A DNA stretch of 38,920 nucleotides, taken from the NCBI GenBank assembly GCA_964534545.1, contig CAZHQS010000002.1, positions 1 to 38,920 on the forward strand, in the 5' to 3' direction. The stretch comes from Candidatus Hydrothermarchaeota archaeon. GTDB taxonomy: Archaea; Hydrothermarchaeota; Hydrothermarchaeia; Hydrothermarchaeales; JAADFM01. The notes under the pieces are model-generated. The model saw only the letters and a list, made by a program, of their open reading frames with translations, was not told the origin of the DNA and searched no databases. Below are positions 3 to 32,933 of the stretch, piece by piece. The translations under genes and the position numbers were made by a program. Numbering within the stretch: position 1 is the first letter of the stretch; each line of letters opens with the position of its first letter.

Positions 3-1499
3 AACAAGGGCACGGAACCCCACGGCGGCCTCAACGGTGAAATCGAGCTTGTGCAACTGAACATGGCCCAGCTTGAAAGGGGCAGGGCAGTGGTTGAGAA
101 GAGGGGCACCTTCACAGGGGAGCCCGGCAAGACCATAACCTTCAGACAGAGCTACACCAACGACGGCAGGTATCTCCTCCAGTCAGCGGCTGACAGGTTC
201 GTCCTTCTGGACAGCGACTTCAATGTCCTGGACGAGGAGACCGGTCTTCCAGGTCAGAACCACGACGCCATACCAACTCCCGACGACAAGTATGCCATCC
301 TGACCCTCAGGGTGCCCGTGGACAAGGGCGGCGAGAAACCGGCCACCGACGGCCAGATACAGCTCTATGACATAGAGAACAAGAAGGCCATCGGCAAGCC
401 AGTGTCCACCTGTATGGCCTGCCACGACGAGAACGACATAGAAGGCAATGCCGTCCTCTGCGGCCTGGATGCAGTCTGGGAGTCCCCGGCACCACCGGCA
501 CCCCCCAAGGTGACCTACACCGGTGACATCTATGTTGCCGGCATGGGCGGCCACTTTGCCAAGGCTACGGTGGAGATCGATCCCTCAGCGGCCCAGCCAA
601 TCCAGGTGACCAGCCTCAAGAGGGTGAGGATCGGTTCCAAGGACACCCATCCGACCCATGATCCCAGGGTGGACGTCAACGACCAAAACACCATGTTCTG
701 GTCCACCTACAAGCTGGACGGCGACAAGGTTCATGTGGGCAAGACCGACCTCTCAACGGGCAAGGTCATAAAGGATGTGGCTCTGGACCTGGATCCCCGG
801 GCGACCAAGACAAGTTCCCTGTACTGCGCCTCGGGCCAGTCCAAGAACAGCTATATCCCGGTGACCATGACCCACGAGGCCTACATCGATGTCTTCGACA
901 AGGCGACCCTGGACCTCAAGACCAGGGTGTTCCTGGACGGTGTCCTGGCAGATGCCAACTACAAGTTCTTCCACGGGACCAACACCCCCGACATGAAGGG
1001 CTTTGTGGTGGCCATCAACAAGGGCACGGAACCCCATGGCGGCCTCAACGGCGAGATCGAGTTGGTGCTCCTGGACATGGCCGACCTGGAGGCGGGCAAG
1101 GCCACCGTGATAAAGCGCAACAGCTTTACCGGGGAGCCTGGCAAGACCATAACCTTCAGGCAGAGCTACACCACCGACGGGAAGTACCTCCTCCAGTCCG
1201 CGGCTGACAGGTTCGTCCTTCTGGACAGCGACTTCAATGTCCTGGACGAGGAGACCGGTCTTCCAGGTCAGAACCACGACGCCATACCAACTCCCGACGA
1301 CAAGTATGCCATCCTGACCCTCAGGGTGCCCGTGGACAAGGGCGGCGAGAAACCGGCCACCGACGGCCAGATACAGCTCTATGACATAGAGAACAAGAAG
1401 CTGGTTGGTGACCCGGTGTCCACCTGCTTTGCCTGCCACGACGAGAACGACATAGAAGGCAATGCCGTCCTCTGCGGTCTGGATGCAGTCTGGAGATAG
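3..1499 (+). CDS. 5'-truncated secreted beta-propeller protein with two tandem units, each ending in a CxxCH...LCG..W module (putative haem c or metal site)
   Basis: The frame is open from nt 3 (NKGTEPHGGLNGEIELV precedes the GTG at 51), so the gene starts left of the window. The two units are joined by the linker SPAPPAPPK. The modules are CMACHDENDIEGNAVLCGLDAVW (internal) and CFACHDENDIEGNAVLCGLDAVW (C-terminus). Blade-like His motifs: GMGGH, DTHPTHD, FHGTN, TEPHGG, NHDAIPTPDDKY. Confidence 0.8.
   Translation, partial: NKGTEPHGGLNGEIELVQLNMAQLERGRAVVEKRGTFTGEPGKTITFRQSYTNDGRYLLQSAADRFVLLDSDFNVLDEETGLPGQNHDAIPTPDDKYAILTLRVPVDKGGEKPATDGQIQLYDIENKKAIGKPVSTCMACHDENDIEGNAVLCGLDAVWESPAPPAPPKVTYTGDIYVAGMGGHFAKATVEIDPSAAQPIQVTSLKRVRIGSKDTHPTHDPRVDVNDQNTMFWSTYKLDGDKVHVGKTDLSTGKVIKDVALDLDPRATKTSSLYCASGQSKNSYIPVTMTHEAYIDVFDKATLDLKTRVFLDGVLADANYKFFHGTNTPDMKGFVVAINKGTEPHGGLNGEIELVLLDMADLEAGKATVIKRNSFTGEPGKTITFRQSYTTDGKYLLQSAADRFVLLDSDFNVLDEETGLPGQNHDAIPTPDDKYAILTLRVPVDKGGEKPATDGQIQLYDIENKKLVGDPVSTCFACHDENDIEGNAVLCGLDAVWR
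186..386 (+). repeat. 201-nt perfect intragenic direct repeat, copy A (copy B at 1200..1400)
   Basis: Base-by-base comparison gives 201/201 identity at an offset of 1014 nt. It sits inside a longer diverged duplication (about 3..482 versus 1017..1496). Confidence 0.95.
1200..1400 (+). repeat. 201-nt perfect intragenic direct repeat, copy B
   Basis: Identical to 186..386. The flanks are clearly diverged, for example LNMAQLERGRAVVEKRGTF versus LDMADLEAGKATVIKRNSF. Confidence 0.95.
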
Positions 1500-1541: not shown

Positions 1542-1567
1542 AATTGATATCCCCAGAGGACATTAGG

Positions 1568-2743
1568 ATGAATGTCTATTACCTTGCAAGGCAGAATGTC
1601 AAACGAAAGCCCTTTAGAAGTCTTGTTATGGTTATATCAATCTGTTTTCTGGTGGCCTTGACCATCTTTGCCATCTCCTTCATCACAAACGTGAACAAGA
1701 GCCTGGAGAAGACCTCCAACAGGCTGGGGGCGGACATCATAGTGGTGCCCTCCGGGGCCAGGACCATCGCCGAGGAGTTCCTCCTGGAGAGCAAGAAGAA
1801 GTCCTTTTACATGGACATGGAGGCTGTGGAGAAAATCCGTTCCCTGGAGGAGGTCGAGAAGGTAACCTACCAGATCTATCTCAAGACCGTCCCAGGGGTC
1901 TGCTGTGACATCCAGGAGGCCCAGGTAGTGGTCTTTGACCCGGAGAGCGATTTCATCGTAAGGCCCTGGCTTGAGGAATCTGGAATAGAGCTCAATAAGG
2001 GGGAGTATATCGTCGGCCATGGCTCCTACGAGGACCTCAGGTTTGGTCTTTTGGAGGCGCAAACCATCTTTGGCAAGGAGTTCAAGACCGGTGGGGTCCT
2101 GGAAGAGACAGGGACCGGCATGGACTACTCAATATTCATCGGCCTTGAAGACTTCGAAGAGATCCTGAAGGAATCACAACCGGTGGAGCCCGGAAAGATA
2201 TCCGTCATCTTCGTCCGCTTGAAGGAGGGCTACAAATCCCATCTTGTGGGCCGGAAGATCGATGGTCTCTTCCCCGAGGTGGATGCCATCCCCAGGGGTG
2301 AGATCGGTGAGGATATAAAGGGCGACCTCATGGATATAAACAAGATATTCACCATCTCCATATTCTACTCTGCCGTTTTTTCCATATTCCTGGCCTGGGC
2401 CATATTCTCGGCCATCGTCAACGAGAGGAGGAGGGAGATCGGCCTTATGCGGGCCATGGGGGCCAAGAGGCTCCATATCTTCAAACTCTTCATCTCGGAG
2501 GCCGCCTTCATCGGGGGCGCAGGGGGTGTCCTCGGGGTGGTCCTTGGCAATTATATTGTGAACAGGATGGCGGAGGACTTCCGGCTGCTGGAGAACCTCT
2601 CCCAGGCCCTGGATACCAACACCCGGATAATGATAAGCATCTTTGGTTTTCTGGGTGGGATATTCGTCTGTGTCTTCGGGGCCTTCTTCCCGGTCATCAG
2701 GGTCGGCGGTATTGAACCGCTGGAGGCCATCAAGGGTGAGTAG
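1568..2743 (+). CDS. MacB/FtsX-type ABC transporter permease (module 1)
   Basis: ATG at 1568 follows AGAGGA. N-terminus MNVYYLARQNVKRKPFRS then TM1, a large extracytoplasmic domain of about 200 aa (RLGADIIVVP, vicinal Cys in PGVCCD), and C-terminal FtsX motifs (NERRREIGLMRAMGAKR, three TM helices). The last 4 nt lie next to the ATPase start. Confidence 0.88.
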   Translation: MNVYYLARQNVKRKPFRSLVMVISICFLVALTIFAISFITNVNKSLEKTSNRLGADIIVVPSGARTIAEEFLLESKKKSFYMDMEAVEKIRSLEEVEKVTYQIYLKTVPGVCCDIQEAQVVVFDPESDFIVRPWLEESGIELNKGEYIVGHGSYEDLRFGLLEAQTIFGKEFKTGGVLEETGTGMDYSIFIGLEDFEEILKESQPVEPGKISVIFVRLKEGYKSHLVGRKIDGLFPEVDAIPRGEIGEDIKGDLMDINKIFTISIFYSAVFSIFLAWAIFSAIVNERRREIGLMRAMGAKRLHIFKLFISEAAFIGGAGGVLGVVLGNYIVNRMAEDFRLLENLSQALDTNTRIMISIFGFLGGIFVCVFGAFFPVIRVGGIEPLEAIKGE

Positions 2744-2744
2744 G

Positions 2745-3413
2745 ATGATAAGGGTTGAGAACCTCTCAAAGGTCTACACCATCGAAGGGGAGCCCCTGGT
2801 GGCGGTGGACGATGTATCCTTTGAGGTTGACAAGGGTGAGTTCATATCCATCGTGGGTCACTCTGGCAGCGGCAAGACCACCCTCCTGAGCCTGATTGGC
2901 GGCCTGACCAGACCCACCTCGGGAAAGGTCTTCATCAACGACGTGGACATCTGGGCCCTGGGTGACAACCTTATGTCGGAGTTCCGCAACCGAAACATCG
3001 GCTTCATGTTCCAGTTCTCAAGCCTCATCCCCACCCTCAATGTCCTGGACAACGTCCTCCTTCCGGTCAGTTTCGGGGGGAAGGCAACAAAGGAGGTGAA
3101 AAAGAGGGCCGAGGAGTATCTGGACCTGGTGGGCCTTTCAGGACGGACGCGGTCCTATCCATCCCAGCTCTCCGGGGGCCAGCAGCGCCGTGTCGCCATC
3201 GCCAGGGCATTGATAAACGAACCGGAGATCATCCTGGCCGACGAACCGACAGGTGACCTTGATATCCAGACCGAAGGGGAGATATTGAGGCTCTTCCAGC
3301 GGATAAACGCCGAGAAGGAGATAACCTTCCTCATCGTCACCCACGCCCAGAACATTGCGGATTATACGGAAAGGATGATAGTAATGAAGGATGGAAAGGT
3401 CTTTGAGGAGTAG
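2745..3413 (+). CDS. ABC transporter ATP-binding protein, MacB/LolD-like (module 1)
   Basis: Starts MIRVENLSKVY at ATG 2745, one nt after the permease stop. Walker A GHSGSGKTT, signature LSGGQQRRVAIARAL, Walker B IILADEPTGDLD. The 2643 start in the track overlaps the permease and is rejected. Confidence 0.92.
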   Translation: MIRVENLSKVYTIEGEPLVAVDDVSFEVDKGEFISIVGHSGSGKTTLLSLIGGLTRPTSGKVFINDVDIWALGDNLMSEFRNRNIGFMFQFSSLIPTLNVLDNVLLPVSFGGKATKEVKKRAEEYLDLVGLSGRTRSYPSQLSGGQQRRVAIARALINEPEIILADEPTGDLDIQTEGEILRLFQRINAEKEITFLIVTHAQNIADYTERMIVMKDGKVFEE

Positions 3414-4444: not shown

Positions 4445-5671
4445 GTGAGAAAAGAACTGTTTATGCTATGCATCCTGGCCATCGGGATGCTGGTAGCAGG
4501 ATGTGGCGGTGGAGGTGAGACCACCACCGGCGGTGGCGAAGAGACCACCGTGGAAGAAACCACCGTCGCGGAAGAACCGGTAGAAGAGACCGTTGACTAC
4601 CTCATCGGTACCGCCTATGTGGCCGGTGAAGGCGGCCATGTGGCCGTGATTGACCTTGAGGCCTTCACAAAGGAGGCATCCACCTACATCCCCAAGAGGG
4701 TGAAGCCCAAGGGACTTAAGGGTGGTAGTGAAACTGCAGGTAAGCTTGCCGGTATGGATATCGGCGAGATGACCGGCGAGGGCATGCCCGAGAAACAGGG
4801 CGGAACCCACGGAGCAGCCCTTCTGCCGGACGGGGAGACCCTTGTTGTGGGCACCCTGGGCGGCCAGGTCTACGAGGTTAACCTGAAGACCAAGAAGACC
4901 ACCGGCCCCGTGGACGTGGGTATCAAGTTCTGTGACGCCATGCTCGGACCCGACGGCAAGGTCTATCTCGAGGACATGGCCGATGGGAACGTCTATATCT
5001 ACGACCCCGAGACTGACACCACAGCTGATATCATACCCACCGGGGACAACAATGAAGGGATATCCAGCGTATGCGGTATCGACTGGCTCGATGACGGCAC
5101 CATGCTGATAACCGACATGCCCAGCGGAACCGTCTACCACATAGATGCCGAAGGAAACGTCCTGGGCAGCGTTAATGTCGGGACCTTCATCCACCAGGCT
5201 ACCCTGACCCCGGACAAGAAAGAATACTGGGTCTCTGCCCCCGACGAGTTCAACGTGCCGGTCAACGGTCTTGACGGCTGGTCCATCAACCCGGAGGCCT
5301 CCGGCGGACACAAACCCGGAATATCCATCGTGGACCCGGCTACCATGACCGAGATCACCAGGATCGAGACCCCGAACCTCTATGCCCACGACATAGAGTT
5401 CACGCCTGACGGCAAGTACGCCCTCATCAGCGCCAGGGACTACACCGATGGCGGCTGGCTGGTCATCATGGATGCCAAGAGCCATGAGGTCGTCTGCCAG
5501 GGCGAGGTCTGCAAGAGCTGCCACGAGGATTCCGGCATCGATGTCGAGCCCGGCAGCGTGAAGCTCTGCGGAACAGAGGTCGACTGGACCGGGTACAAGA
5601 CCGCAACCCTCACACCTGGTGAGGTGGCCGAGGGCCCAAGCGGCGAACTCGTAGTGGTTGGATGCGGTTAA
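4445..5671 (+). CDS. Lipobox beta-propeller protein with C-terminal CxxCH...LCG..W module and ELVVVGCG tail
   Basis: GTG at 4445 lies 4 nt after GGAGGTGA. Signal and lipobox: MRKELFMLCILAIGMLVAGC-GGGGE. Propeller-like repeats include YVAGEGGH, GGTHGAALLPDG, IHQATLTPD, GGHKPG and AHDIEFTPDGKY. The module CKSCHEDSGIDVEPGSVKLCGTEVDW is paralogous to ORF 3..1499. Confidence 0.85.
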   Translation: MRKELFMLCILAIGMLVAGCGGGGETTTGGGEETTVEETTVAEEPVEETVDYLIGTAYVAGEGGHVAVIDLEAFTKEASTYIPKRVKPKGLKGGSETAGKLAGMDIGEMTGEGMPEKQGGTHGAALLPDGETLVVGTLGGQVYEVNLKTKKTTGPVDVGIKFCDAMLGPDGKVYLEDMADGNVYIYDPETDTTADIIPTGDNNEGISSVCGIDWLDDGTMLITDMPSGTVYHIDAEGNVLGSVNVGTFIHQATLTPDKKEYWVSAPDEFNVPVNGLDGWSINPEASGGHKPGISIVDPATMTEITRIETPNLYAHDIEFTPDGKYALISARDYTDGGWLVIMDAKSHEVVCQGEVCKSCHEDSGIDVEPGSVKLCGTEVDWTGYKTATLTPGEVAEGPSGELVVVGCG

Positions 5672-5711: not shown

Positions 5712-6815
5712 TCATTTTCTGGGCATCCGGAAGAGGACCCCAGCCCGCATATCTCTAATTGAGAAGGTGAAGTCATCGATGTGCTTCTCGGTGAAGGGTA
5801 TGCCGGTAAGCTCGAAGAACCTCTCCCAGCCTATGCGGCCTATCCACTCCCCAACCCTTTCGTCCTCCTCGGCATTCTCCGTCCATACCTCAATAATCTT
5901 CTTGACCGTTTTCGTGACCTCGGGCCACCTGGGCGGGTCGTTGGGGATGTAGGGGACCGCCAGCCTGGAGAAGGCAGGGCCGCTCCTGGCGCTGGAGACC
6001 TTCCCCCCCACCCAGATGGAGACCCCGTCATTTTCCGGATCCGCCAGGGGCACCCCCGGGCAGAGGCTGTAGCAGATGCCGCAGTACATGCATTTAGAGG
6101 CGTCTATCTGGATGGACCTCCTGGTCCCCCCGTCCTCCTGCGTGACCATCTTCGGCTTTATGGCATAGGTAGGACAGGAGGAGATGAGGGTCGGGATCTC
6201 ACAGGCCCTGGATACCACGTCGTCGTCCACCCTCGGGGGGACCCTGTGCATCCCCAGGACCGCAATGTCCGAGCAGTGGACCGCCCCGCACATGTTGAGG
6301 CATCCGGCCACGGCTATCTTGAGTTTTGCAGGGAGGTCCGTCCTGGAGAAGTAGGGGTACAGTTCGTCGTAGAGGGCCTTCCCGATACCCGGCGAGTCCG
6401 TGGCCGGGGTATGACAGTGGACCCAGGCCGTGCACTGGATGATGCTGGCCATGGACTTCCCGGTTCCCCCCACGGGGAGCCCCATCTCCTTCAGGTCCCT
6501 GATAAGGGGGTCTATGTTATCCTCCTCGGTCAGGAGGAACTCAATGGAGTGCCTGGAGGTGAACCTCAGGTAGCCGCCGCAGTATCTGTCCGCCAGGTCG
6601 CAAATCTTCCGGATGGTGGCAGGGCTTACGAACTTGGGACCCCCGGCCCTGACCGTATATACAGCCTCTCCGGATTCCGCCACATGCTTCAGGACCCCGG
6701 GCCCCATATGCTCGTAGTAGTCCCACTTCCCGTAGTTCCTCCTGACGACGGGCGGGAGCATCTGCTGGAAGTCAGGGGGTCCGAAGTCCAGTTTTTCCGG
6801 CATCTCCATGGTCAT
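5712..6815 (-). CDS. dsrB: Dissimilatory sulfite reductase beta subunit
   Basis: DFGPPDFQQMLPPVVRRNYGKW, LRFTSRHSIEF, CTAWVHCHTPATD (CX5C), GCLNMCGAVHCSD (CX3C), ferredoxin insert CMYCGICYSLCP, IGWERFF. RBS TAGGAGGAA overlaps the dsrA stop. Confidence 0.92.
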   Translation of the reverse strand: MTMEMPEKLDFGPPDFQQMLPPVVRRNYGKWDYYEHMGPGVLKHVAESGEAVYTVRAGGPKFVSPATIRKICDLADRYCGGYLRFTSRHSIEFLLTEEDNIDPLIRDLKEMGLPVGGTGKSMASIIQCTAWVHCHTPATDSPGIGKALYDELYPYFSRTDLPAKLKIAVAGCLNMCGAVHCSDIAVLGMHRVPPRVDDDVVSRACEIPTLISSCPTYAIKPKMVTQEDGGTRRSIQIDASKCMYCGICYSLCPGVPLADPENDGVSIWVGGKVSSARSGPAFSRLAVPYIPNDPPRWPEVTKTVKKIIEVWTENAEEDERVGEWIGRIGWERFFELTGIPFTEKHIDDFTFSIRDMRAGVLFRMPRK

Positions 6816-6821
6816 TTCCTC

Positions 6822-7964
6822 CTACTCGATCTCCTCTGGCCAGTAGAACCAGAAGGGGTTGGCCCTGGGGGCCGCCACCTGCTGGGGCACCGCAGGGAGC
6901 TCCACGGCCCTCAGGAACCTGGCCATGCCGAGGCGGTATATGGTCTCGCCAATCCTTTCCTTGGTGCGGCCGTTCTCGTCCCACCAGTCCGTTATGTTGT
7001 CGATGAGGGTCTTGAGGTTTTGGTAGGGGGGCTTCAGTTTTATGAAGGGTATCAGGGTCCAGCCAAGGAAGGCCCCGTATCTCCCCCGGGCCCGCCCCCC
7101 TATGAGGATCGTGGCGCCCTTCTCCTCTCCGGGTTTTAGTGCCCTTGGCATCTTGTTCAGGCAGTGCATGCACCGGACACAGTCCCCCTCCTTCAGCTCC
7201 AGCTCCGTCCCGTCCCATCGGATGGCACCGGTGGGGCATTTTGAGCAGATGCGGGAGATATCCAGGCCATCATCGGCATACCTTTTGACCTCCCCCTGTT
7301 TTATCCGCATAGGCCCCTTCCACGTCCCTATGATGGCAAGGTCAGACCTTGCCACCGCCCCGGTGGCGTCGTTGGGGCAGCCCGATATCTTTATCTTGAA
7401 CTTGTAGGGGAACCTGGGCCGGTGGGTCTCCCCGATGTATTCCCTCATGAGCTCCTGGTATATCCCCAGGGTGTCGATGCAGGCGAGGTTGCACCTGGCG
7501 GGCCCGATACAGCAGCTCATGGTCCTTATGGTGGCGCCGGAGCTGCCGATGTCGAAGTCCATCCTGGCGAACTCGTTGAAGCACTGGACCATGTCCTCCT
7601 TTTTTATCCCGATGAGCTGGATATTCCCCTGGGCGCCGTGGAAGTTCATCAGGCCCCTGCCGTACCTCTCCCAGATGTCACAGATCTCCCGGAGGTGCCT
7701 CGTGGTGTAGAACCAGGCCGCCGGGGAGGTGATCCTGAGGCTGTGGTTGTCCCTGATGATCTCCGGGGAGTCGCTCAGCCTCCCTATGACCCCTGAATCG
7801 TAGCCCGGGATACCCACCATGCCGCCGTGCTTCCAGTGGACCACCCTGTCCTGGTACATCTTCTCGTAGATGGCCACGAGCTCCTTGTAGCCCGTCCTCT
7901 TCATCTCGGTGACATGGCTGGGCCAGGGGCCCTTCTCAAGTTCGTCGATTAGACCTTCTCCCAC
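6822..7964 (-). CDS. dsrA: Dissimilatory sulfite reductase alpha subunit (short form, 380 aa)
   Basis: GTG start after GGGTGAG. LEKGPWPSHVTEMKR, HWKHGGMVG, CIGPARC (CX5C), PYKFKIKISGCPNDA, ferredoxin insert CSKCPTGA...CVRCMHCLNKMP, C-terminal PRANPFWFYW. Confidence 0.9.
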   Translation of the reverse strand: MGEGLIDELEKGPWPSHVTEMKRTGYKELVAIYEKMYQDRVVHWKHGGMVGIPGYDSGVIGRLSDSPEIIRDNHSLRITSPAAWFYTTRHLREICDIWERYGRGLMNFHGAQGNIQLIGIKKEDMVQCFNEFARMDFDIGSSGATIRTMSCCIGPARCNLACIDTLGIYQELMREYIGETHRPRFPYKFKIKISGCPNDATGAVARSDLAIIGTWKGPMRIKQGEVKRYADDGLDISRICSKCPTGAIRWDGTELELKEGDCVRCMHCLNKMPRALKPGEEKGATILIGGRARGRYGAFLGWTLIPFIKLKPPYQNLKTLIDNITDWWDENGRTKERIGETIYRLGMARFLRAVELPAVPQQVAAPRANPFWFYWPEEIE

Positions 7965-8078: not shown

Positions 8079-9029
8079 ATGGCGGCATCCGCTCCGTTAG
8101 ACATCGGCCCGGGAAGGCGCGACAATCTCGTATGGGTAGTTTTCTTTGGGGCCCTATTGCTGCTGCCTGTCTGTATCTCTGCGATGCCCGAGTACTCGGA
8201 GAGGACCGGCGAGGGCTGCGGGACGTGCCATCTGGAGGATGACGGCGGTCCCTTGAGCAGGGAAGGCCTCGAGTATGCTGCTTCAGGCTACACGTGGCCC
8301 CCTGAAGGGGGGTACAGGGTCCTGGGGCCAATGGGTAAGTACCTCCGGCTCCTGGTGGGCTTCCTTCACCTTGCAGCTGCCTTCATTTGGTTCGGTGCCA
8401 TTTTATATGTCCACATCCTCCTCAGGCCGGGCTATGCCTCCAAGGGACTACCAAAGGGAGAGGTGGTCATGGGCCTTGTTTCCATGGTCCTTGTGGGTAT
8501 AACCGGTGTGCTGCTTACCGTATCGAGGGTCAAGGGTCTTGACGTGCTGTACTCCAGCCGGTGGGGGATGGTCCTCTCCATCAAGATCATCCTTTATGTC
8601 GTCATGGTCTCCGGCGCCCTCGTTGTAGTGACCTTCGTGGGACCGAGGCTTAAAAGGAGGGCGGGACGCCCCGAGCCTCCCGCCGGGGGGATCTATGACC
8701 CCCTGACCCTCTCGTGGTTTGACGGAAAGGAGGGCAGACCCCCCTATGTTGCCTACAGGGGAGAGGTCTATGATATGAGCGGCCTCGAGCTGTGGAGGGA
8801 TGGGACCCACATGAAGCACAGGGCAGGGGAGGACCTCTCGGATGCCATGAAAAGGGCCCCCCACGGAGATGAAAAACTGGAGCCCCTGAAGGTCGTGGGC
8901 TCCTTTGATGCTGGATTGAGCCCCCCCAGGCGCCCCATAGAAAAGGTCTTCTATTTCATAGCATATATGAACCTCGTGCTGGTGTTCTCGGTGCTCTTTG
9001 TGATCTCCTACTGGAGGTGGGGGCTATAG
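8079..9029 (+). CDS. Membrane protein fusing an N-terminal CxxCH motif, a CopD-like TM domain and a cytochrome b5-like domain
   Basis: Strong RBS tract GGTGAGGAAGGGAGGA. Signal anchor then YSERTGEGCGTCH. TM helices with LHLAAAFIWFGAILYVH (CopD-like). Soluble insert LSWFDGKEGRPPYVAYRGEVYDMS...HRAGEDLS (b5/steroid-binding-like). Final TM helix. Confidence 0.75.
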   Translation: MAASAPLDIGPGRRDNLVWVVFFGALLLLPVCISAMPEYSERTGEGCGTCHLEDDGGPLSREGLEYAASGYTWPPEGGYRVLGPMGKYLRLLVGFLHLAAAFIWFGAILYVHILLRPGYASKGLPKGEVVMGLVSMVLVGITGVLLTVSRVKGLDVLYSSRWGMVLSIKIILYVVMVSGALVVVTFVGPRLKRRAGRPEPPAGGIYDPLTLSWFDGKEGRPPYVAYRGEVYDMSGLELWRDGTHMKHRAGEDLSDAMKRAPHGDEKLEPLKVVGSFDAGLSPPRRPIEKVFYFIAYMNLVLVFSVLFVISYWRWGL

Positions 9030-10544: not shown

Positions 10545-11129
10545 TTACTTGGCCAGCTCCTCTTCTATGACCTCTTTTATGTAGGGATACCCCTTGGTAT
10601 TGGGCACCTTCCTGCCGTTGATGTAGAGGGTCGGCGTGCCGATCACCCCTTGCTCCACGGCAGCCCTGAGGTCGTCCAGGACCTCCTCTTTATATTTCCC
10701 GGAATCCAGGCACTCCCTGAACCGGGCCTCCTCCAGGCCCACCTGGGCGGCGTACCGGTAGAAAGCGCTCCCGTCCCTTGCCCACTCCCTCACGTTCTCG
10801 AAGAGGAGGTCGTGGTAGGGCCAGAACTCCCCCTGCTCGTGGGCGCACTCGGCGGCCATGGCAGCGCTGAGGCTCACCTGCCCCCCCGGGACATGGCGGT
10901 AGACTATCCTCACCCTGTCCCCGTAGTCCTCCTTCAACTCCTGGAAGGTGGTGTCATGGAACATCTTGCAGGTGAGGCAGCCATAGCTGGAGAACTCCAC
11001 CACCTCCACCTTAGCGTCGGCAGGGCCCAGGAAGGGCTCATCCAGGAGGGCCGGGGTCTCCTCCGGGGCGGTCTGCGGAGCGGCCAGGCATCCCGTCAGC
11101 AGCCACAGGAGGAGCAGGGAGGTCCTCAT
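10545..11129 (-). CDS. DsbA/thioredoxin-fold lipoprotein (thiol:disulfide oxidoreductase)
   Basis: Lipobox MRTSLLLLWLLTGC; CxxC active site SSYGCLTCKMF; GTPTLYINGRK. 4-nt overlap with the upstream permease gene. Confidence 0.85.
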   Translation of the reverse strand: MRTSLLLLWLLTGCLAAPQTAPEETPALLDEPFLGPADAKVEVVEFSSYGCLTCKMFHDTTFQELKEDYGDRVRIVYRHVPGGQVSLSAAMAAECAHEQGEFWPYHDLLFENVREWARDGSAFYRYAAQVGLEEARFRECLDSGKYKEEVLDDLRAAVEQGVIGTPTLYINGRKVPNTKGYPYIKEVIEEELAK

Positions 11130-12759: not shown

Positions 12760-13428
12760 TTACTGGGATACTATTTTACCGTCCTTCATGGTGAGCATGG
12801 CCTGGGCCTCCCTTGCCAGGGCCTTGTTGTGGGTGACCATGACGAAGGTGACCCCCTCCTCCCGGTTCATCCTCCGGAATAGCTCCATAACAGTGGCCTC
12901 GCTCTCCTCGTCCAGGTCCCCGGTGGGCTCGTCGGCCAGGATGATCTTGGGCCGGTTCATGAAGGCCCTGGCGATGGCGACACGGCGCTGCTGGCCCCCG
13001 GAGAGCTCCGAGGGATAGGCCTCTATCTTGTCGGTCAGCTCCACCATATCCAGGAGGTCCCTTGCCCTCTCCAGGCTCTCCTCCTGCTGTTTGCAGAAGA
13101 AGGTGGGCAGGAGGAGGTTGTCCAGGACATTGAGGGTGGGGATGAGGCTTGCAAACTGGAACATGAAACCTATGGTCAGGTTGCGGAAGATGGACATCTC
13201 CCTGTCGTCCAGGGTCCAGATGTCCGTGCCCTCGATGGTGACGGTCCCTGCGGTGGGTTTGGTCAGACCGCCGATAAGGCTCAGGAGGGTGGTCTTGCCG
13301 CTGCCGGAGTGGCCCACGATGGAGACGAAATCCCCGGCCCCGATCTCCAGGTTGATGTTGTCCACAGCCCGAATCTCTCCAGAACCGACCTTGTAGACCT
13401 TGGTTAGATTGCTAAGGGATATCATCAT
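12760..13428 (-). CDS. ABC transporter ATP-binding protein, MacB/LolD-like (module 2)
   Basis: GHSGSGKTT, LSGGQQRRVAIARAF, IILADEPTGDLD. Close paralogue of 2745..3413. Confidence 0.92.
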   Translation of the reverse strand: MMISLSNLTKVYKVGSGEIRAVDNINLEIGAGDFVSIVGHSGSGKTTLLSLIGGLTKPTAGTVTIEGTDIWTLDDREMSIFRNLTIGFMFQFASLIPTLNVLDNLLLPTFFCKQQEESLERARDLLDMVELTDKIEAYPSELSGGQQRRVAIARAFMNRPKIILADEPTGDLDEESEATVMELFRRMNREEGVTFVMVTHNKALAREAQAMLTMKDGKIVSQ

Positions 13429-14675: not shown

Positions 14676-14785
14676 TATACCCTCTTTGTTTATTGTCACA
14701 TCGGTAAAAAATAAGAGAGATGGTTTTCCCGAGATCGAAGCCCAAGCAAATCCTATAAATACCACTAATAATCCAATAAAGGGTT

Positions 14786-20181: not shown

Positions 20182-20471
20182 CTTTCCACCTCCATGGGGG
20201 CCCCGAGGCCCTCAAAGTCCGGTGGGGAGAAGCCTGCACAGGAGGCGTGGTAGCACATGGCCCCGGGCAGGTCCCTGAAGCAACCCGCCATGTCCACGGT
20301 GCTGGGGTTCCTGGTGGAGTAGCAGTCCGTGGCGATGGAAAGGTCTGTCAGCCCCAGGGGCCTCAGGGGCGGGAGCACGTCCCTTTCCATCGGCCCGGAG
20401 CCTGACAGGAGGAGGGCCAGGACACCCACCTCGAGACCCAGGACCAGAAGAACTGCTGTCGATGCCCTCAT
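20178..20471 (-). CDS. Small signal-anchored 4-Cys protein, function unknown
   Basis: 97 aa. N-terminal hydrophobic segment AVLLVLGLEVGVLALLL, then ATDCYS..MAGCFRDLPGAMCYHASCAG. ATGA-type 4-nt overlaps on both sides. Confidence 0.6.
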   Translation of the reverse strand: MRASTAVLLVLGLEVGVLALLLSGSGPMERDVLPPLRPLGLTDLSIATDCYSTRNPSTVDMAGCFRDLPGAMCYHASCAGFSPPDFEGLGAPMEVER

Positions 20472-20950
20472 TCCAACCCTATCCTCTCCATGTTCTGGAG
20501 GACCTCCTGGAAGGTCATGACCGCCCCGGAGGGATGGTCCTCCCGGAAGGACTCGGCCTTCTCCCGGTCCTGGAAGGGGACCAGCCCGTATCCCATGGGG
20601 GTGTATATTCTGGCCCTGGTGACGAAATAGGCACCCGTGGCGTCAATCCACTCCTGGGTGTAGTAGTCCCTGACGAAGACCTTCCTCACCTGGTCCTGGC
20701 CTGAGAGGCGGCTGTAGTAGATCATCAGGCACCCGGGGTCGTCGAACTTCTTCACCTTGTCCTCCAGGAAGATCTCTCCCGCCCAGTTCTCGTAGTCCTT
20801 GACGTACATGCCGCAGACCGGGCAGCGGTCCCCCTTCTCTATCTCCAGGGGGTGGATTTCTCCGGCTGTAACCTGGGAGGGGGACCCTTTCCCCATGCAG
20901 CCCAGGATAAGAAAAAGCATTGAGACGATCAGGGCAGTCCGTAGTGACAT
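20468..20950 (-). CDS. nosL: NosL-family lipoprotein (putative Cu chaperone), copy 1
   Basis: Lipobox LFLILGC. CPVCGMYV...FDDPGC and GYGLVPF motifs typical of NosL. Confidence 0.8.
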   Translation of the reverse strand: MSLRTALIVSMLFLILGCMGKGSPSQVTAGEIHPLEIEKGDRCPVCGMYVKDYENWAGEIFLEDKVKKFDDPGCLMIYYSRLSGQDQVRKVFVRDYYTQEWIDATGAYFVTRARIYTPMGYGLVPFQDREKAESFREDHPSGAVMTFQEVLQNMERIGLE

Positions 20951-21050: not shown

Positions 21051-21215
21051 TTAGCCTTCTTTTGTTGTGGGTTCTTTCCCGCCTTCATCCAGCCCCTTCT
21101 GGAACTCGGACTTGGCCTTGCCCAGGGAGCGGGCAAGCTCCGGGACCTTGGAACCACCGAAGAGGAGGATGACTATCAGGAGGACTATCATGCTTTCCTG
21201 AGGACCGACAAACAT
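21051..21215 (-). CDS. tatA: Twin-arginine translocase subunit TatA/E (54 aa, absent from the ORF track)
   Basis: My own translation: MFVGPQESMIVLLIVILLFGGSKVPELARSLGKAKSEFQKGLDEGGKEPTTKEG. This gives the TatA TM helix plus the FGG.K.PEL.RSLGKA..EFKK amphipathic motif. SD AAAGGTGAAGGT lies directly upstream. Confidence 0.85.
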   Translation of the reverse strand: MFVGPQESMIVLLIVILLFGGSKVPELARSLGKAKSEFQKGLDEGGKEPTTKEG

Positions 21216-21306: not shown

Positions 21307-21984
21307 TTAACCACACCCAACTACCACGAGCTCCTCGCCCATGGCCTCATTTTGCATATCCATACCGCCCATATCCATAGAACCAGTGTCCATACTTTCA
21401 GACCCCATATCCATGCCGCCCATCTTCATCTTGAGGTCCTTCAGCAGGTCCTTGGTTATGGCATCGTAACCTATGACCTCGCCGCCGTGCTCATGGGCAA
21501 AGGCCATGGCGTCATCCATGCTTGCAAAGGGGATAACATCATCACCCATGGGACCCTGGACATCGCTTCCCTTGACGTAGTGGGCGGTCCTGGCATCGAT
21601 GTACTCCTTGGTGGAGTAGTCGGTGACGAAGACCCCGGCTATGGTGCTTGTGTCCTCTATCCAGGTCTTGTCCATGCCCATGTTGTCCAGACCCTTGAGA
21701 TATTTCAGCATGTCCTTGGGGGAGTCAAAGTGGGCGGCCGTTCCGTCTGTGAAGAGGATCTGGGCCCTCCATTCCGGGAATTTTGCGGGCATCATACCGC
21801 AGATGGGGCACTCGTCAGCCATGGTGGGCTGTACCGGTTCTATCTCCGCCGGAGGGGCGGTGGTAGGTGCAGGTGTGGCGGCCGGGGCCGCCTGCTGGGC
21901 TGGCCCTGCACAGCCAGCAAGTAGGCTGATAAGGGTTAAGGTCAAAAGCAATCCTTTTGCACTCGCTTTCATCTTTCGAATCAC
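21307..21984 (-). CDS. nosL: NosL-family lipoprotein, copy 2, with Met-rich tail and ELVVVGCG C-terminus
   Basis: Lipobox LISLLAGC. CPICGMMP...FDSPKD. Met-rich tail MKMGGMDMGSESMDTGSMDMGGMDMQNEAMG. Ends EELVVVGCG. SD GAGGTGAT. Confidence 0.8.
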   Translation of the reverse strand: MIRKMKASAKGLLLTLTLISLLAGCAGPAQQAAPAATPAPTTAPPAEIEPVQPTMADECPICGMMPAKFPEWRAQILFTDGTAAHFDSPKDMLKYLKGLDNMGMDKTWIEDTSTIAGVFVTDYSTKEYIDARTAHYVKGSDVQGPMGDDVIPFASMDDAMAFAHEHGGEVIGYDAITKDLLKDLKMKMGGMDMGSESMDTGSMDMGGMDMQNEAMGEELVVVGCG

Positions 21985-22191: not shown

Positions 22192-22650
22192 TCACAGGGT
22201 TTTCTTACCCCGGCGTCCTTCTCTCAAATCTTCAAACCTCAAAACCACCCCCTCATGTATTTCTCTGAAGGTCGAGACAGACCTGTGGTCCTTGAAGGCA
22301 ATGATGCCGCAGTTCATGGGAGTTTTAATGTCACTGTCCTTGAGATAGTAGGCGTCCTTGATTCCCACCCATTCCAATGTGCGATAATCAGCAACATGGG
22401 CATTTGAGAAGTCAGTGGTGTTATATCTAAGCAGGCAGCATATGGTGCAAAAATCGACTTTTGTGCCGTCCTTCAATGTCAGATAAGAAGAGAACCCCAG
22501 CATCTCATCGGTGATTGCCATCCCGCACTTGGCGCAAGAGTACCCAAGGTCCAGACCACCGAAGTCCCCCTCGCAGCATTCCTGTGTATACACTCCGATG
22601 TTTGCGCATCCGGCAAGGAGGACCAGGGCCAGACCGCAGATACACTTCAT
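22192..22650 (-). CDS. nosL: NosL-family lipoprotein, copy 3
   Basis: Start MKCICGLALVLLAGC at 22650, 7 nt after the upstream stop. CAKCGMAI...VDFCTICC and NCGIIAF. The longer track ORF (to 22797) overlaps the upstream gene. Confidence 0.72.
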   Translation of the reverse strand: MKCICGLALVLLAGCANIGVYTQECCEGDFGGLDLGYSCAKCGMAITDEMLGFSSYLTLKDGTKVDFCTICCLLRYNTTDFSNAHVADYRTLEWVGIKDAYYLKDSDIKTPMNCGIIAFKDHRSVSTFREIHEGVVLRFEDLREGRRGKKTL

Positions 22651-22657
22651 GGCTTTC

Positions 22658-24103
22658 TCAGCTGCCCCATCCTCCACTTGAGACCGCTTCGGTTGTAAAG
22701 GCAGCCGAGATAAACATCTCGGTCGCATTGACGGTAGCCTCTCTGTCCTTTCCCGCAATAATAATGGCGGTTTGACCTTCAACGAAGGCATCTTCAATTA
22801 CTTCGATGTCGCCCTCACTTGTATACCAGTCAACCTTTGATTTGCCGGTGCTCACCAACTCGGCAACCAGGCTGTTTGCCACCGGGCCTCCTACGAGCAC
22901 CAGGGTCTTCTCCCCTTTTTCACTCTCAGTGATCTCCTTCTCGGATTTTACAGGGATATGAGGAATGCCATTATACGAACCGGAAGCCCCGATGAGGACG
23001 TCCTTGGTCAGGAAATCATCGTAATCGGCCTTGGTCTTCTTAAGCCAGGTCTCCGGGAGGACATCACCCAAGGTCTTCTCCTTCTCTATGTCGAAGGTCT
23101 TGGCAGTCGAGAGGCTGACCCAGTATTTCGTACCGGAAATCTTTATACTCTCCCCAGGGGAGAGGGTCACTTCGGGCCCAAAGGCCGCGAACCCATTGGG
23201 GACGCCGTAATCATCATTGAATACCTTTATGAACTCATATCCTGCTGTATCTTCTATGCCGTCCGTTAGCTCTATCACATCGGATCTGTTCACAAAGGCG
23301 ATAGTTACGGTGCCGGCGCTGGCGTCCACGGTATCCAGGATCATGTGATGGTCAGGGAAGAGGTCTAAAAACTCTTTCTCTTCGACGAGTTCCGGCAGGT
23401 CGCTCTGGTTGTATGGCAACTCGAAGGACCTGTCCATAGACCCCTTGTCCCTGTCATAGACCCCCAATCGGAGGGAAAGGTTTGCTGTGATACCGAAAAC
23501 CCCTATGCTTTTAGAGGTATGAGGTACTGAGATGAAACTATTTATGTTTGCTGCATTAATGAAGGTCCTCTTGGCCACCTTTCCTATCACAATCTTCTCC
23601 CCTGCCTCTATATCCACTATGCCGTAATAATCCGTTGTCATCGCCTTCTCCTTCCAGTCGTAGTATCTGACGGTGAATATCTCCCCCTTCCGGGCGCTCG
23701 TCTTTTTGTAGCATGGTCTGAGCTTAAGATCCCTGGATTTTTCGGTGAAGTACAGATAACTGTATCTGAACTCGGCCCTCCCGGTGGTACTCTTTTTATA
23801 ATAGCTGCTCTCGTTGATGTTCGACCAGTCAAGACCCGCGAAGTCGTCGGTTAGCCATGTGATCTCAAGTTCAATACCGTCATCAATGGTTACACTTTCT
23901 GTACCGACCTCTTTTATCTTCTCGGCAATAGTGTTAGCACATTTCAGGTCTTCCGGCACGATGCCGTGGGTGTTTATTCCGACAACGACTGTTGTTCTCC
24001 CCTCCCCGTCCTGGGAGAAGATGCTCTTATCGAAGGTCAGCTCCTCTGCATGGACAAGACCTAGGGATAGCAACGCCACCAGTATCAAGGGGAGGGCCTT
24101 CAT
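22658..24103 (-). CDS. Secreted archaeal S-layer-like protein
   Basis: Signal peptide MKALPLILVALLSLGLVHA. N-terminal TVVVGINTHGIVPEDLKCANTIAEKI and C-terminal LVLVGGPVANSLVAELV motifs resemble the methanococcal-type S-layer family. The RBS AAAGGAGG lies in the end of the upstream gene. Confidence 0.65.
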   Translation of the reverse strand: MKALPLILVALLSLGLVHAEELTFDKSIFSQDGEGRTTVVVGINTHGIVPEDLKCANTIAEKIKEVGTESVTIDDGIELEITWLTDDFAGLDWSNINESSYYKKSTTGRAEFRYSYLYFTEKSRDLKLRPCYKKTSARKGEIFTVRYYDWKEKAMTTDYYGIVDIEAGEKIVIGKVAKRTFINAANINSFISVPHTSKSIGVFGITANLSLRLGVYDRDKGSMDRSFELPYNQSDLPELVEEKEFLDLFPDHHMILDTVDASAGTVTIAFVNRSDVIELTDGIEDTAGYEFIKVFNDDYGVPNGFAAFGPEVTLSPGESIKISGTKYWVSLSTAKTFDIEKEKTLGDVLPETWLKKTKADYDDFLTKDVLIGASGSYNGIPHIPVKSEKEITESEKGEKTLVLVGGPVANSLVAELVSTGKSKVDWYTSEGDIEVIEDAFVEGQTAIIIAGKDREATVNATEMFISAAFTTEAVSSGGWGS

Positions 24104-25435: not shown

Positions 25436-26332
25436 CTACTTCCCCTTCTCGTATGTGATGGCCTTGTTCGGGCATGCGCTGATGCAGTCCATGCACCCAT
25501 TGCAGATGTGGCGGTCGATGGAGATCCTGTCCTCTGATCTTACTGCCCAGGTGGGACAGGACTCCACACAGAACTCTCCGCTGCACCTGCATTTTGCCAT
25601 GTCATGTTTGATCTTGTAGGTGAAAGGCAGCCTTGCCCCAATCCAGTGGGTCAGGTTCTGCAGCGCACCGGCGGGGCAGAGGAAATTGCACCACCCGCGT
25701 CCGCCCTCCAGAACGACACCCAGGACCACAAAGGTCAAAAGGAAGGTTATGATGGAGGAGGACGTAAAGGCAAACATCCCGTAACCCGTTATGCCGTCAA
25801 GATTGCCGAATAGGCCGTTCCAGACATTCTCTATCCAGGTCCAGTTGCAGTAGGCACAGCAGACGCTTTTTTTAATGAAAGGGGCAGCCACGATGAAAAA
25901 TCCTGCAAGGAAACCATATCTTATCGGCACGGGGTCCAGTTTTCCCCTCAGGTTGATCTTGAATCTCGAAGGCACAATCCTTGATAGGTGCTCGGGCATA
26001 CCTCCGGGACAGAGCCAGCCGCAGAAGAGGGGGCCGACGAAGAAGGATATGCCGATCAGGAGGAATATCAGGAGATAGAGGGGATTCCCGATAATCCGCC
26101 CAAAAAACCTCTCCGGGCTGAATACGGCCCATGTGAGGGGCATCCGGAGGCACATGGCCCGGTGCACCGTTGGCTCCGAGTTGATTGCCGCACCCCCGAT
26201 TCCAGAGTCAAGGGCCGCACAGAGCTGCCCAATCCCCACCAATAGAAGGGAGAAGGGTGCGACGAAGAGGACCATGCCCAGAAGGAAGAAAAGGAGCCTC
26301 TTTTTCAGGTGGTCTTTCCTGGCCTTGCTCAT
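25436..26332 (-). CDS. NapH/NosH/MauN-like polytopic membrane ferredoxin
   Basis: FCGWLCPGG and WCNFLCPAGA motifs after TM helices. C-terminal CRCSGEFCVESCP and CNGCMDCISACP. Start MSKARKDHLKKR at 26332 forms an ATGA overlap with the upstream stop. Confidence 0.82.
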   Translation of the reverse strand: MSKARKDHLKKRLLFFLLGMVLFVAPFSLLLVGIGQLCAALDSGIGGAAINSEPTVHRAMCLRMPLTWAVFSPERFFGRIIGNPLYLLIFLLIGISFFVGPLFCGWLCPGGMPEHLSRIVPSRFKINLRGKLDPVPIRYGFLAGFFIVAAPFIKKSVCCAYCNWTWIENVWNGLFGNLDGITGYGMFAFTSSSIITFLLTFVVLGVVLEGGRGWCNFLCPAGALQNLTHWIGARLPFTYKIKHDMAKCRCSGEFCVESCPTWAVRSEDRISIDRHICNGCMDCISACPNKAITYEKGK

Positions 26333-26892
26333 TGAGGCCGACCCCCTTCCCATGACCCCTGACCTCCACTGACTCTTTTATTGATTATCTTTATAGGTAT
26401 GGAGAGGAGGATTTCTCCTGATTTCGCATCGATTACATTGAGGTTCCCGCTGTATATCATGGGTCTTTTCTGCAGTTCTGGTGAGATGTGGAAGGTATGA
26501 TGGACCGATACCGAATCGCCGGGTTTTAGAACCCTCTCGATGGTCCTGGTCTCCAGGTTGAAATCCTTGGTATGGGAGTTGCTCCAGTGGACCTCCAGTC
26601 CTTCTGGCACATTGGTCAGTTCAAATCTAACCATGACCGGTTTCCTGGTGTTGGTGAGCCCGGTTGTGCCTCCAACGGTATCACTTGAAATCAATCTGTG
26701 GAGGAACCCGTCCTCCCCGTACTTCAGGATGATGGGCCTTGCCTTCTCGCCGGGGAACCTGTAAAACTGGTGGTATCCCTCCCCTGCCCGGACGTCCCTG
26801 TGGTAAAAGCCCAGGACGAAGGCAGAGGACAGGCCGATCAAGAACAGAATATAAGTTGATTTTTTCCGGTTCGAATGAACAACATTTGCCAT
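26329..26892 (-). CDS. Signal-anchored beta-rich protein, function unknown
   Basis: 187 aa. N-terminal TM helix (YILFLIGLSSAFVLGF) followed by beta-strand-like sequence. RBS AAGGAG. Confidence 0.65.
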   Translation of the reverse strand: MANVVHSNRKKSTYILFLIGLSSAFVLGFYHRDVRAGEGYHQFYRFPGEKARPIILKYGEDGFLHRLISSDTVGGTTGLTNTRKPVMVRFELTNVPEGLEVHWSNSHTKDFNLETRTIERVLKPGDSVSVHHTFHISPELQKRPMIYSGNLNVIDAKSGEILLSIPIKIINKRVSGGQGSWEGGRPQ

Positions 26893-29209: not shown

Positions 29210-29440
29210 ATGAGTAAGGAAAACACCGGAACCCGGAAGGGAGGCCATGGCTTTGGCGATACCCTCAAGGAGGGCAGGAAGAGGCTCAAGATAAAGATGG
29301 CAGACCTGATTTATGTCCTGGACATCCAGAACAAGAACCCCCATGTGGACCGGGTCCTGGCAGACTACGGCCTGGACCGGGACACCCTGAAACGGGTCAA
29401 GGCGGCCCTGGAAAGGGGCAGGTGGAAGGTCCAGGTCTAA
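29210..29440 (+). CDS. Small basic protein (possible HTH), hypothetical
   Basis: 76-aa ORF with host-like codon usage. TGTATATAAT and the ATCGG/CCGAT palindrome lie upstream. Its stop overlaps the hemY stop on the opposite strand. Confidence 0.35.
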   Translation: MSKENTGTRKGGHGFGDTLKEGRKRLKIKMADLIYVLDIQNKNPHVDRVLADYGLDRDTLKRVKAALERGRWKVQV

Positions 29441-30867: not shown

Positions 30868-30877
30868 GTAGTAACCT

Positions 30878-31822: not shown

Positions 31823-31863
31823 CCTCCATCATAAATCCTTGCCAGGGATATAAGTATTTTCGC

Positions 31864-32895: not shown

Positions 32896-32933
32896 CAACC
32901 AAGGTGTAGGGAGAGGGGCCCATATAACCTTTT

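Follow-up and report, generated by a model that had tools for sequence, protein, structure and literature searches.

The window and the question it raises

The stretch of DNA analysed here (the window, 38,920 nucleotides of contig CAZHQS010000002.1 from a Candidatus Hydrothermarchaeota archaeon) carries at 4445..5671 a gene, here called the target, for an exported beta-propeller protein with a CxxCH motif near its C-terminus, and the question it raises is whether this protein is a metalloenzyme of a new kind. An initial annotation had proposed a novel extracytoplasmic metal-cluster enzyme with a built-in haem electron entry point, and had likened it to N2O reductase (NosZ); as a whole this interpretation is partly supported, the metal-cluster enzyme with its haem entry point being a prediction from sequence. 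Invariant motifs and a recurrent operon suggest that it is a new metalloenzyme. The reading preferred here, tentatively and with slightly less than even confidence, is that of a haem-c protein with a copper-binding hub, for which an ATP-binding cassette (ABC) system of the MacB type and the copper chaperone NosL would play the part that NosDFY and NosL play for N2O reductase. From conserved motifs, predicted structures and gene neighbourhoods we infer the location of the conserved residues at the propeller axis, the attachment of haem, the binding of copper, the role of the ABC system in maturation and an enzymatic redox function.

The target protein and its relatives

The target consists, in this order, of a signal peptide, a Gly/Glu/Thr-rich linker, the propeller, a C-terminal CxxCH module and a 27-residue tail (Table 1). 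The translated signal peptide, MRKELFMLCILAIGMLVAG followed by C, has a lipobox (V-A-G-C20) that fits the lipoprotein pattern [LVI][ASTVI][GAS]C at the signal-peptide end, and the module reads CKSCH-x14-LCGTEVDW, that is C356-K-S-C359-H360-EDSGIDVEPGSVK-L374-C375-GTEVD-W381. Translation and an AlphaFold2 (AF2) model confirm the initial description of the target as a beta-propeller lipoprotein capped by a CxxCH...LCG..W module. The term lipoprotein applies to the target itself, but lipobox-like motifs are found in only 4 of 200 relatives, and "His-rich" does not suit a protein with eight His among 408 residues.

Searches returned 151 homologues of the target, the best of which is an archaeal orthologue with 79% identity. 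Three archaeal homologues (P0003-P0005) have an inserted cytochrome c domain, and the remaining ones, with lengths of 335-376 aa, come from Nitrospirota, Thermodesulfovibrionales and Methylomirabilales and are publicly named "YncE family" or hypothetical. A 71%-identical fragment is also present in the metagenome-assembled genome of a "Methanobacteriota archaeon". Among 1.84 billion cluster representatives, 57 clusters matched at E <= 1e-30, beyond which only generic YVTN repeat proteins were found. Judged by their alignments, the target and the units of a second propeller gene at 3..1499 are members of two paralogous families, A and B, and most family-A relatives are 335-380 aa long.

Conservation was counted over 200 distinct family-A sequences, and motifs of family B over 120 sequences. 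The CxxCH motif, which the initial annotation expected to be conserved in homologues, is present in 199/200 and 120/120 of these, respectively (319/320 overall), and C356, C359, H360, C375 and W381 are each found in 199/200 of family A. A regular expression for the whole C-terminal module matches 170/200 family-A and 101/120 family-B sequences, and a divergent subfamily without H315 and C375 still has CxxCH, making the haem-type motif the most persistent feature. Of the conserved His motifs listed at the outset, YVAG.GGH, (D/G)TH, (I/F)H(Q/G) and (A/N)HD stand, with their His in 197-199 of the 200 sequences, but the His of (GG/EP)H (H289) is kept in only 139. Beyond what had been noted before, three Cys (C163, C210, C375) and two Met (M178, M225) are also invariant.

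A CxxCH that never varies, in a protein exported by the Sec route, is the hallmark of covalently attached haem c. The signal peptides of family A are Sec-type, with twin-arginine-like N-termini in just 2/200 relatives, and Sec-type signals without a twin-arginine motif are consistent with what haem-c attachment requires; as Sec-exported proteins with a conserved CxxCH, these proteins have the sequence features by which c-type cytochromes are recognised. The target is probably a Sec-exported, membrane-tethered beta-propeller of an undescribed family, whose single CxxCH most likely carries covalent haem c on the same face as the other invariant residues. Haem is further supported by the archaeal relative P0005, which adjoins ccmABCEF genes, and the cytochrome c insert of the three archaeal relatives lends additional support to a predicted redox role.

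In these three relatives (P0003-P0005; L004:7350-8789), a class-I cytochrome-c-like domain of ~90 residues, with a second CxxCH, sits in the loop before the GG(S/T)H motif (H122). P0005 is ~1.2 kb from the ccmABCEF cluster and has no adjacent FtsX/ABC pair. Another member with added domains is P0243, a giant surface protein of 2470 aa that combines a NosD-like beta-helix, an S-layer domain and a complete family-A unit (residues 216-376, 499-569 and 1495-1825).

Position of the conserved residues

In the AF2 model of the target (predicted local distance difference test, pLDDT, 85.6; predicted template modelling score, pTM, 0.83), the strands assigned by DSSP are grouped in fours. H122, C163, C210, H250 and H315 stand in successive four-strand blades where the first strand begins, each six residues ahead of a PDG-type turn. 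In the alignment with the YVTN propeller 1l0q, C163 and C210 occupy the X position of the P-X-G motif ahead of the first strand. C375 opens the closing strand, and the CxxCH helix (357-362) lies in the connection from the last, outermost strand of a blade to this closing innermost strand.

In beta-propellers, the starts of the innermost strands, the loops between strands 2 and 3 and the 4-1 connections share one face around the central channel. Together with the repeat register, this geometry implies that all of the invariant residues would cluster at the mouth of the channel on one ("top") face; in the model, H65, H122, C163, C210, H250, H315 and C375 would form a ring around the channel mouth, with M178 and M225 in neighbouring loops. 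The initial annotation had set a convergence of the His on the axis against their being scattered over the surface, and scattering is not what is seen, with the same repeat position being used in each blade; convergence itself was read from the repeat register and not from distances. The cytochrome c domain of the archaeal relatives, inserted just before H122, lies on this same face, which argues for electron transfer to it.

Copper sites of type 1 and of the CuA kind use His, Cys and Met as ligands. The hub of soft His/Cys/Met ligands most likely binds copper, as one or more Cu ions, and electrons would move through the haem between this site and a redox partner.

Operon and loci of the relatives

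Eighty-four loci were compared, 83 of them outside the window; a genome scan supplied 80 and contig look-ups the rest, and 68 loci, those with 3.2 kb or more of sequence downstream, were considered informative. FtsX and ABC genes are both present in 62 of these 68, and the commonest order, seen 38 times, is propeller, FtsX/MacB permease, tetratricopeptide repeat (TPR) lipoprotein and ABC ATPase, with the permease gene starting about 135 bp downstream of the propeller gene. NosL is encoded within about 6 kb in 30 of the 83 loci, and all of these but one have it no more than 3.5 kb from the propeller gene (for example L006:6531-7055; PF05573, 100 bits). The co-occurrence of homologues with NosL or ABC genes, which the initial annotation would lead one to expect, is observed. 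A YtkA-domain protein is encoded in 8 loci, DUF4418, a small membrane protein with conserved Cys/His, in about 25, and a convergent pair of cytochrome b561 and multihaem cytochrome genes in 13. Family-B genes have the same operon arrangement, with DUF4418.

The partner permeases of bacteria and archaea, and of families A and B, have a periplasmic YLxTxPGxCCD motif, the Cys pair of which is conserved in at least 90% of 70 partner permeases and is also present in the family-B and archaeal partners examined. Of the three other permeases in the window, two have no Cys-Cys and the third (13425-14810, minus strand) has a different pair, in the context ACCVGW. This MacB/FtsX-type system with its Cys-Cys, often accompanied by NosL or a YtkA-domain protein, the TPR lipoprotein and DUF4418, probably loads the metal after export. 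It would resemble NosDFY-NosL, which acts on N2O reductase, in function but not by homology. NosL is presented as a dedicated Cu(I) chaperone for CuZ assembly (PMC6530538), and is described as relaying Cu through NosDFY, with a YtkA-domain protein replacing NosL in Geobacillus (PMC13068155).

The closest archaeal locus (L001) shares with the window the order B, FtsX, ABC, helix-turn-helix (HTH), A, and continues with DsbA-like, MacB/ABC, PCuAC, TatA and C_GCAxxG genes; its PCuAC, TatA and DsbA-like genes support an involvement of copper chaperones. For uncharacterised small neighbours Pfam was uninformative, with the exception of one weak cupredoxin-like match in L001.

Two observations on sulfur-related genes concern the loci as well. 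In 10 loci (L006, L013, L024, L064, L065, L068-L070, L081 and L082), the propeller gene is preceded at 47-418 bp, in the same orientation, by a gene for a YeeE/YedE-type "sulphur transport" membrane protein, and a family-B gene in L086 has genes for TusA, DsrE and rhodanese in its vicinity.

Comparison with known propellers and transporters

The target does not reach the cut-off of any model in Pfam or NCBIfam, and its sequence and profile matches in the PDB are to a YVTN S-layer propeller, Lp49, NirN, hydrazine synthase beta, YncE and NirF. The metal ligands of NosZ lie on the innermost propeller strands. The CuZ site of NosZ has seven His ligands, whereas the ring of family A has four His, three Cys and two Met, and the resemblance to CuZ ligands that had been suggested at first is not upheld: none of the NosZ/L-NosZ signature motifs (DXHH/GXHH, PHG, GPLH, EPH) occurs in the target, and within family A CuA and GPLH are absent and the others are found in at most 6/200. 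The EPH and PHG strings belong to the window paralogue only and are not conserved in family B, where EPH is found in 1/120. The CuA motif CX2FCX3HXEM, searched for as a regular expression, is absent from the target, the paralogue and all sequences of both families (0/200 and 0/120), and the target has no cupredoxin match in Pfam.

What family A does share with NosZ is an exported propeller that has conserved residues of metal-ligand type on the innermost strands, a (here predicted) C-terminal electron-entry module, ABC genes after the enzyme gene and, frequently, NosL in the operon. Unlike in nos clusters with NosDFY, however, the ABC system is of MacB/FtsX type and NosD is not part of the operon, so that the parallel to nos clusters drawn in the initial annotation stands only loosely, through NosL and ABC genes.

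L-NosZ combines a lactonase-type propeller with a cupredoxin domain in 400-900 aa and has CuA/CuZ motifs (10.64898/2026.07.10.737647; PMC11033732); it is reported without canonical nos accessory genes but with cytochrome and transporter genes nearby (PMC13477213), and its hosts include Nitrospirota (PMC13477213; PMC11033732). The host phyla of L-NosZ and family A overlap, whereas the cupredoxin domain and CuA/CuZ motifs of L-NosZ are lacking in family A. The "nosZ-like" genes of PMC11033732 were considered and set aside, being L-NosZ with a cupredoxin domain and a different protein from family A. No CuA motif was found in the distant representatives of 400-900 aa that were examined, of which P0275, P0331 and P0337 are multi-unit family-B proteins and the rest generic YVTN proteins.

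That the target could be a diverged NosZ, L-NosZ or thiocyanate dehydrogenase in which haem c has taken the place of CuA is very improbable. The best NCBIfam match of one relative, P0032, is indeed L-NosZ (NF052460; 52.5 bits, E 2.7e-14), with 39.7 bits for P0070, and the NosL association, the Nitrospirota hosts and a weak local match to thiocyanate dehydrogenase would agree with such an origin, but these scores are far below the 700-bit cut-off and the target itself has no match to NF052460 at E <= 0.01. The missing CuA motif, the near absence of GPLH, EPH and DXHH, the four His and three Cys in place of seven His and the lack of the cupredoxin domain that L-NosZ retains all speak against it. 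Thiocyanate dehydrogenase is a propeller with a copper centre at the hub, without a haem motif or Cys ligands, and its PDB entries are named as Tat-signal proteins, whereas family A is Sec-exported and lacks a Tat signal. Families A and L-NosZ could nevertheless be confused in loose hidden Markov model screens, and their clear separation therefore matters for surveys of N2O sinks.

By sequence, the nearest solved relatives are NirN (6rtd), hydrazine synthase beta (5c2v) and NirF, with YVTN/cd1-type repeats. The target scores 21.0 bits with the Pfam model Cytochrom_D1 (PF02239), for which the gathering threshold is 25.5, and many homologues carry a precomputed PF02239 match; as far as sequence similarity goes, this is kinship at superfamily level only. 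The cd1 enzymes combine a c-type haem with a propeller that holds a hub cofactor. In the cd1 family the cytochrome c domain is separate, whereas the haem motif of family A is part of a ~26-residue appendage of the propeller and its hub has Cys and Met. The hydrazine synthase beta model (NF052340) gives 26.8 bits against a cut-off of 560.

Also very improbable is an ordinary YncE/YVTN-type propeller without a cofactor, in which the motifs would be structural, even though relatives are publicly named "YncE family protein" and the similarity found by Foldseek and Pfam is generic. The YncE model (NF052280) has a cut-off of 400 bits, against which P0032 reaches 25.2 and P0070 29.8, and the target does not match it; generic propellers are not characterised by a dedicated operon, nor by an invariant CxxCH and invariant His, Cys and Met that recur at corresponding places in the blades.

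Like MacB, LolCDE, FtsEX and HrtBA, the partner permease has FtsX and MacB periplasmic core domains, and the ATPase is LolD/FtsE-like. Unlike the named MacB/FtsX-type systems, it falls below every NCBIfam cut-off, has the YLxTxPGxCCD motif and is coupled to a propeller, NosL, TPR and DUF4418. No paper was found in the literature searched on families A and B or on the propeller-FtsX-NosL-TPR-ABC operon. As a family these proteins are new, and the matches to their fold are generic; as a type they vary a known theme, in which a propeller enzyme combines a cofactor at its hub with a c-type or copper module for electron entry.

Proposed function and alternative explanations

Several points weigh against a haem-c protein with a copper hub. 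Foldseek searches of the PDB with both AF2 models gave generic 7-bladed propellers only (template modelling score 0.4-0.57), meaning that the fold search cannot discriminate. NosZ is absent from the 20 phmmer matches, the best 60 profile matches and the best 50 Foldseek matches per model, and for thiocyanate dehydrogenase there is no more than a weak local match of the profile (E 2e-4) at positions 226-314, the blades with H250 and H315. The placement at the axis rests on the repeat register of the model strands and not on inter-residue distances. The three invariant Cys of this exported protein could be disulfides instead of ligands, and CxxCH with C375 could be a Cys3His zinc site instead of a haem site. 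Among the neighbours, NosL is absent from 53 of the 83 loci and in the window lies 15-17 kb from the target, and no substrate-specific neighbour is conserved across the loci. Furthermore, MacB-type transporters are to our knowledge exporters or mechanotransducers, and we know of none that acts as a metallochaperone motor.

One alternative is a propeller cytochrome that has haem only, in which a ring His or Cys would be the distal haem ligand (e.g. His/Cys, as in sulfur-cycle cytochromes), other ring Cys would form structural disulfides, no copper would be bound and the ABC/NosL system would serve another purpose or client. CxxCH is more conserved across subfamilies than any ring residue, most loci have no NosL, and YeeE-type Sulf_transp, TusA, DsrE and rhodanese genes are found near some of them. 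However, nine invariant His, Cys and Met go far beyond one distal ligand and two disulfides, the partner permease has an invariant Cys-Cys of its own, and the linkage of the operon to the ABC system is near-universal. Haem alone is considered an improbable explanation.

It is likewise unlikely that the protein is a non-enzymatic periplasmic metal handler, which would hold Cu(I) or another thiophilic metal on its Cys, His and Met, including the Cys of CxxCH, without any haem, and would work with the MacB-type pump, NosL and DUF4418 in the sequestration, efflux or delivery of copper. The neighbourhood does have a copper- and thiol-oriented character (three NosL, CopD-like and DsbA-like proteins, PCuAC in L001, Met-rich tails), MacB-family systems are generally exporters, and the propeller shares its ELVVVGCG ending with the NosL protein at 21307-21984 and, as EMVVVGCG, with the PCuAC of L001. 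The His that directly follows CxxC in 319 of 320 sequences is, on the other hand, the signature of haem c and not of a CxxC metal motif, electron transfer is suggested by the cytochrome c domain that some members have on the top face, and one member lies beside ccm genes.

Returning to a haem-c protein with a copper hub, its substrate may lie in sulfur or nitrogen-oxide chemistry, for which the genes nearby, sulfur-trafficking ones among them, and hosts that are anaerobes of the sulfur cycle give no more than hints. A wider proposal is that families A and B together would join NosZ and thiocyanate dehydrogenase as a third class of hub-metal propeller oxidoreductases, independent of these two, in which a covalently bound haem c on the propeller face feeds a His/Cys/Met copper site, a previously unrecognised MacB-type metallochaperone machine (Cys-Cys permease, NosL, TPR and DUF4418) provides assembly, and a so far unassigned sulfur- or nitrogen-oxide redox step is carried out in anaerobic Nitrospirota and methane-cycle-related archaea; this is possible but rather doubtful. 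If true, well over a thousand proteins now called "hypothetical" or "YncE family" in some archaea and in anaerobic Nitrospirota (Thermodesulfovibrionales, Dissulfurispiraceae, Sulfobium) would be a new type of haem-copper enzyme, assembled by a system of its own, and would add a missing extracytoplasmic redox step for sulfur or nitrogen cycling in subsurface and sediment communities. NosL would then have a client besides N2O reductase, and a MacB-type ABC transporter would act in cofactor insertion.

The paralogue and family B

The gene at 3..1499, cut by the window start, encodes one and a half tandem units (Table 1), both of which end in the same CxACHDENDIEGNAVLCGLDAVW sequence (partial unit CMACHDENDIEGNAVLCGLDAVW, full unit CFACHDENDIEGNAVLCGLDAVW). 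Nucleotides 1-300 and 1015-1314 of the window are 88% identical, indicating that the two units arose by a recent internal duplication. The initial annotation had counted three copies of the same unit in the window; the shared ending and the homology hold, but the copies belong to two families with 24% identity, and 3..1499 holds 1.5 units instead of two. Families A and B are homologous according to hhalign (probability 99.7%, E 2.5e-25, 312 columns), BLASTP similarity between them is confined to the last blade and the module (29% over 76 aa), and their profile-profile alignment gives a shared core of GGH, TH, Cys, Met, HD, CxxCH and LCG.

Family B consists of 1074 homologues of the 3..1499 unit, mostly from Nitrospirota, and the best 120 of them are 53-68% identical, about 370 aa long and nearly all single-unit. 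Pfam and NCBIfam gave no domain match for the family-B unit and essentially none among these 120. The AF2 model for family B has a pLDDT of 91.5 and a pTM of 0.90, and GGH, THPTHD, C98, M112, H147, H248-D249, CxxCH and LCG are retained. Tandems of two to three family-B units per polypeptide also occur in unrelated metagenomes (P0275, P0331, P0337 and L089:28-1320), so the tandem architecture of open reading frame 3..1499 is not unique.

Neighbouring genes in the window

Scans of the window bear out the gene surroundings that had been described, namely three NosL homologues, a NapH-like protein, TatA and ABC modules, with no cupredoxin detected by Pfam among the window proteins. There are four FtsX/MacB permeases and three ABC ATPases. 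Markers of an archaeal origin are also encoded in the window, among them HTH proteins with DUF7347 and DUF7343, an S_layer_C protein and a methanofuran gene. The coordinates are given in Table 1.

Table 1. Features of the target gene and of other genes in the window, with conservation in family A (counts out of 200).
Feature	Position	Strand	Basis or remarks
Target gene, family A propeller protein	4445..5671	+	open reading frame and translation; 408 aa plus stop; start codon GTG
Sec-type signal peptide with lipobox (MLVAG/C20)	4445..4504	+	translation; no twin-arginine motif
Beta-propeller body, residues ~53-354	4601..5506	+	AF2-model DSSP strands in fours; profile match to YVTN propeller 1l0q, E 1.5e-22
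H65 (AG.GGH)	4637..4639	+	199/200; common to family B
H122 (GGTH), first-strand start of a blade	4808..4810	+	197/200; strand 121-126
C163 (KFCD), first-strand start of next blade	4931..4933	+	200/200; strand 162-167; aligns to X of YVTN P-X-G (1l0q)
M178 (EDMADG), strand 2-3 loop of C163 blade	4976..4978	+	200/200; aligned to invariant Met of family B
C210 (VCGI), first-strand start of next blade	5072..5074	+	199/200; strand 209-214
M225 (TDMPSG), strand 2-3 loop of C210 blade	5117..5119	+	200/200
H250 (TFIHQ), just ahead of next blade's first strand	5192..5194	+	199/200
H315 (AHD..FTPDGKY), first-strand start of next blade	5387..5389	+	199/200; common to family B
C-terminal mini-module C356-x2-C359-H360...L374-C375-G-x4-W381	5510..5587	+	haem-c attachment motif in helix 357-362; closing strand
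C-terminal tail ending ELVVVGCG	5645..5668	+	last residues of the 27-residue tail
Family B paralogue, cut at window start	3..1499	+	translation; 1.5 tandem units: partial 3..479, Pro-rich linker, full ~516..1496
FtsX/MacB-type ABC permease	1544..2743	+	PF02687, PF12704; periplasmic motif YLKTVPGVCCD, CC at nt 1901-1906
ABC ATPase, LolD/FtsE/MacB-like	2745..3413	+	PF00005, 125 bits; NCBIfam LolD-like 239 bits, below cut-off; ATG at 2745
ArsR-like HTH (DUF7347) protein with membrane segment	3468..4295	+	syntenic in L001 and L089
DsbA-like thioredoxin lipoprotein	10545..11129	-	PF13462, 99.9 bits; in L001 directly downstream of the target orthologue
NosL copper-chaperone homologue 1	20468..20950	-	PF05573, 97 bits
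TatA-like small protein	21051..21215	-	translation; syntenic L001 gene carries PF02416 TatA_B_E
NosL homologue 2, Met-rich tail, ELVVVGCG ending	21307..21984	-	PF05573, 110 bits
NosL homologue 3	22192..22797	-	PF05573, 42 bits
NapH-like Fer4_5 protein	25436..26353	-	domain scan of window

Directly after the target, on the minus strand at 5712-7964, are genes for two small NIR_SIR/ferredoxin-domain proteins (367 and 380 aa) that resemble the sulfite-reductase subunits DsrB and DsrA. This dsrAB-like pair was considered as a functional partner of the target and rejected, since it is absent from the syntenic locus L001.

A membrane protein encoded at 8079-9029 (plus strand) has sub-threshold CopD-like and cytochrome b5-like matches and a CxxCH (CGTCH) in its N-terminal extracytoplasmic segment. 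The C_GCAxxG_C_C protein at 27011-27820 (minus strand), a homologue of which is syntenic in L001, has a twin-arginine signal and a terminal CxxCH (CGDCH), and Tat export together with a haem-c motif is an unusual combination. At 29437-33030 (minus strand), genes for a HemY-type protoporphyrinogen/coproporphyrinogen oxidase-like protein, ferrochelatase and uroporphyrinogen decarboxylase follow in a row; in most archaea, haem is synthesised by the sirohaem-dependent route.

The ELVVVGCG ending of the target (5645-5668) is found as well in its L001 orthologue (L001:3738-4907) and in the second NosL of the window (21307-21330, minus strand), and the PCuAC of L001 (L001:10259-10786) ends in the one-residue variant EMVVVGCG. 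In this NosL and in the PCuAC, a Met-rich tail of the MDMGGMDM type precedes the ending. Other endings are ...R(V/I)IKGC, in some bacterial members of family A, and ...VGC or ...LGCM, in some members of families A and B. Endings of the ELVVVGCG type match none of the known signals and could be a tag for sorting, lipidation or metal binding.

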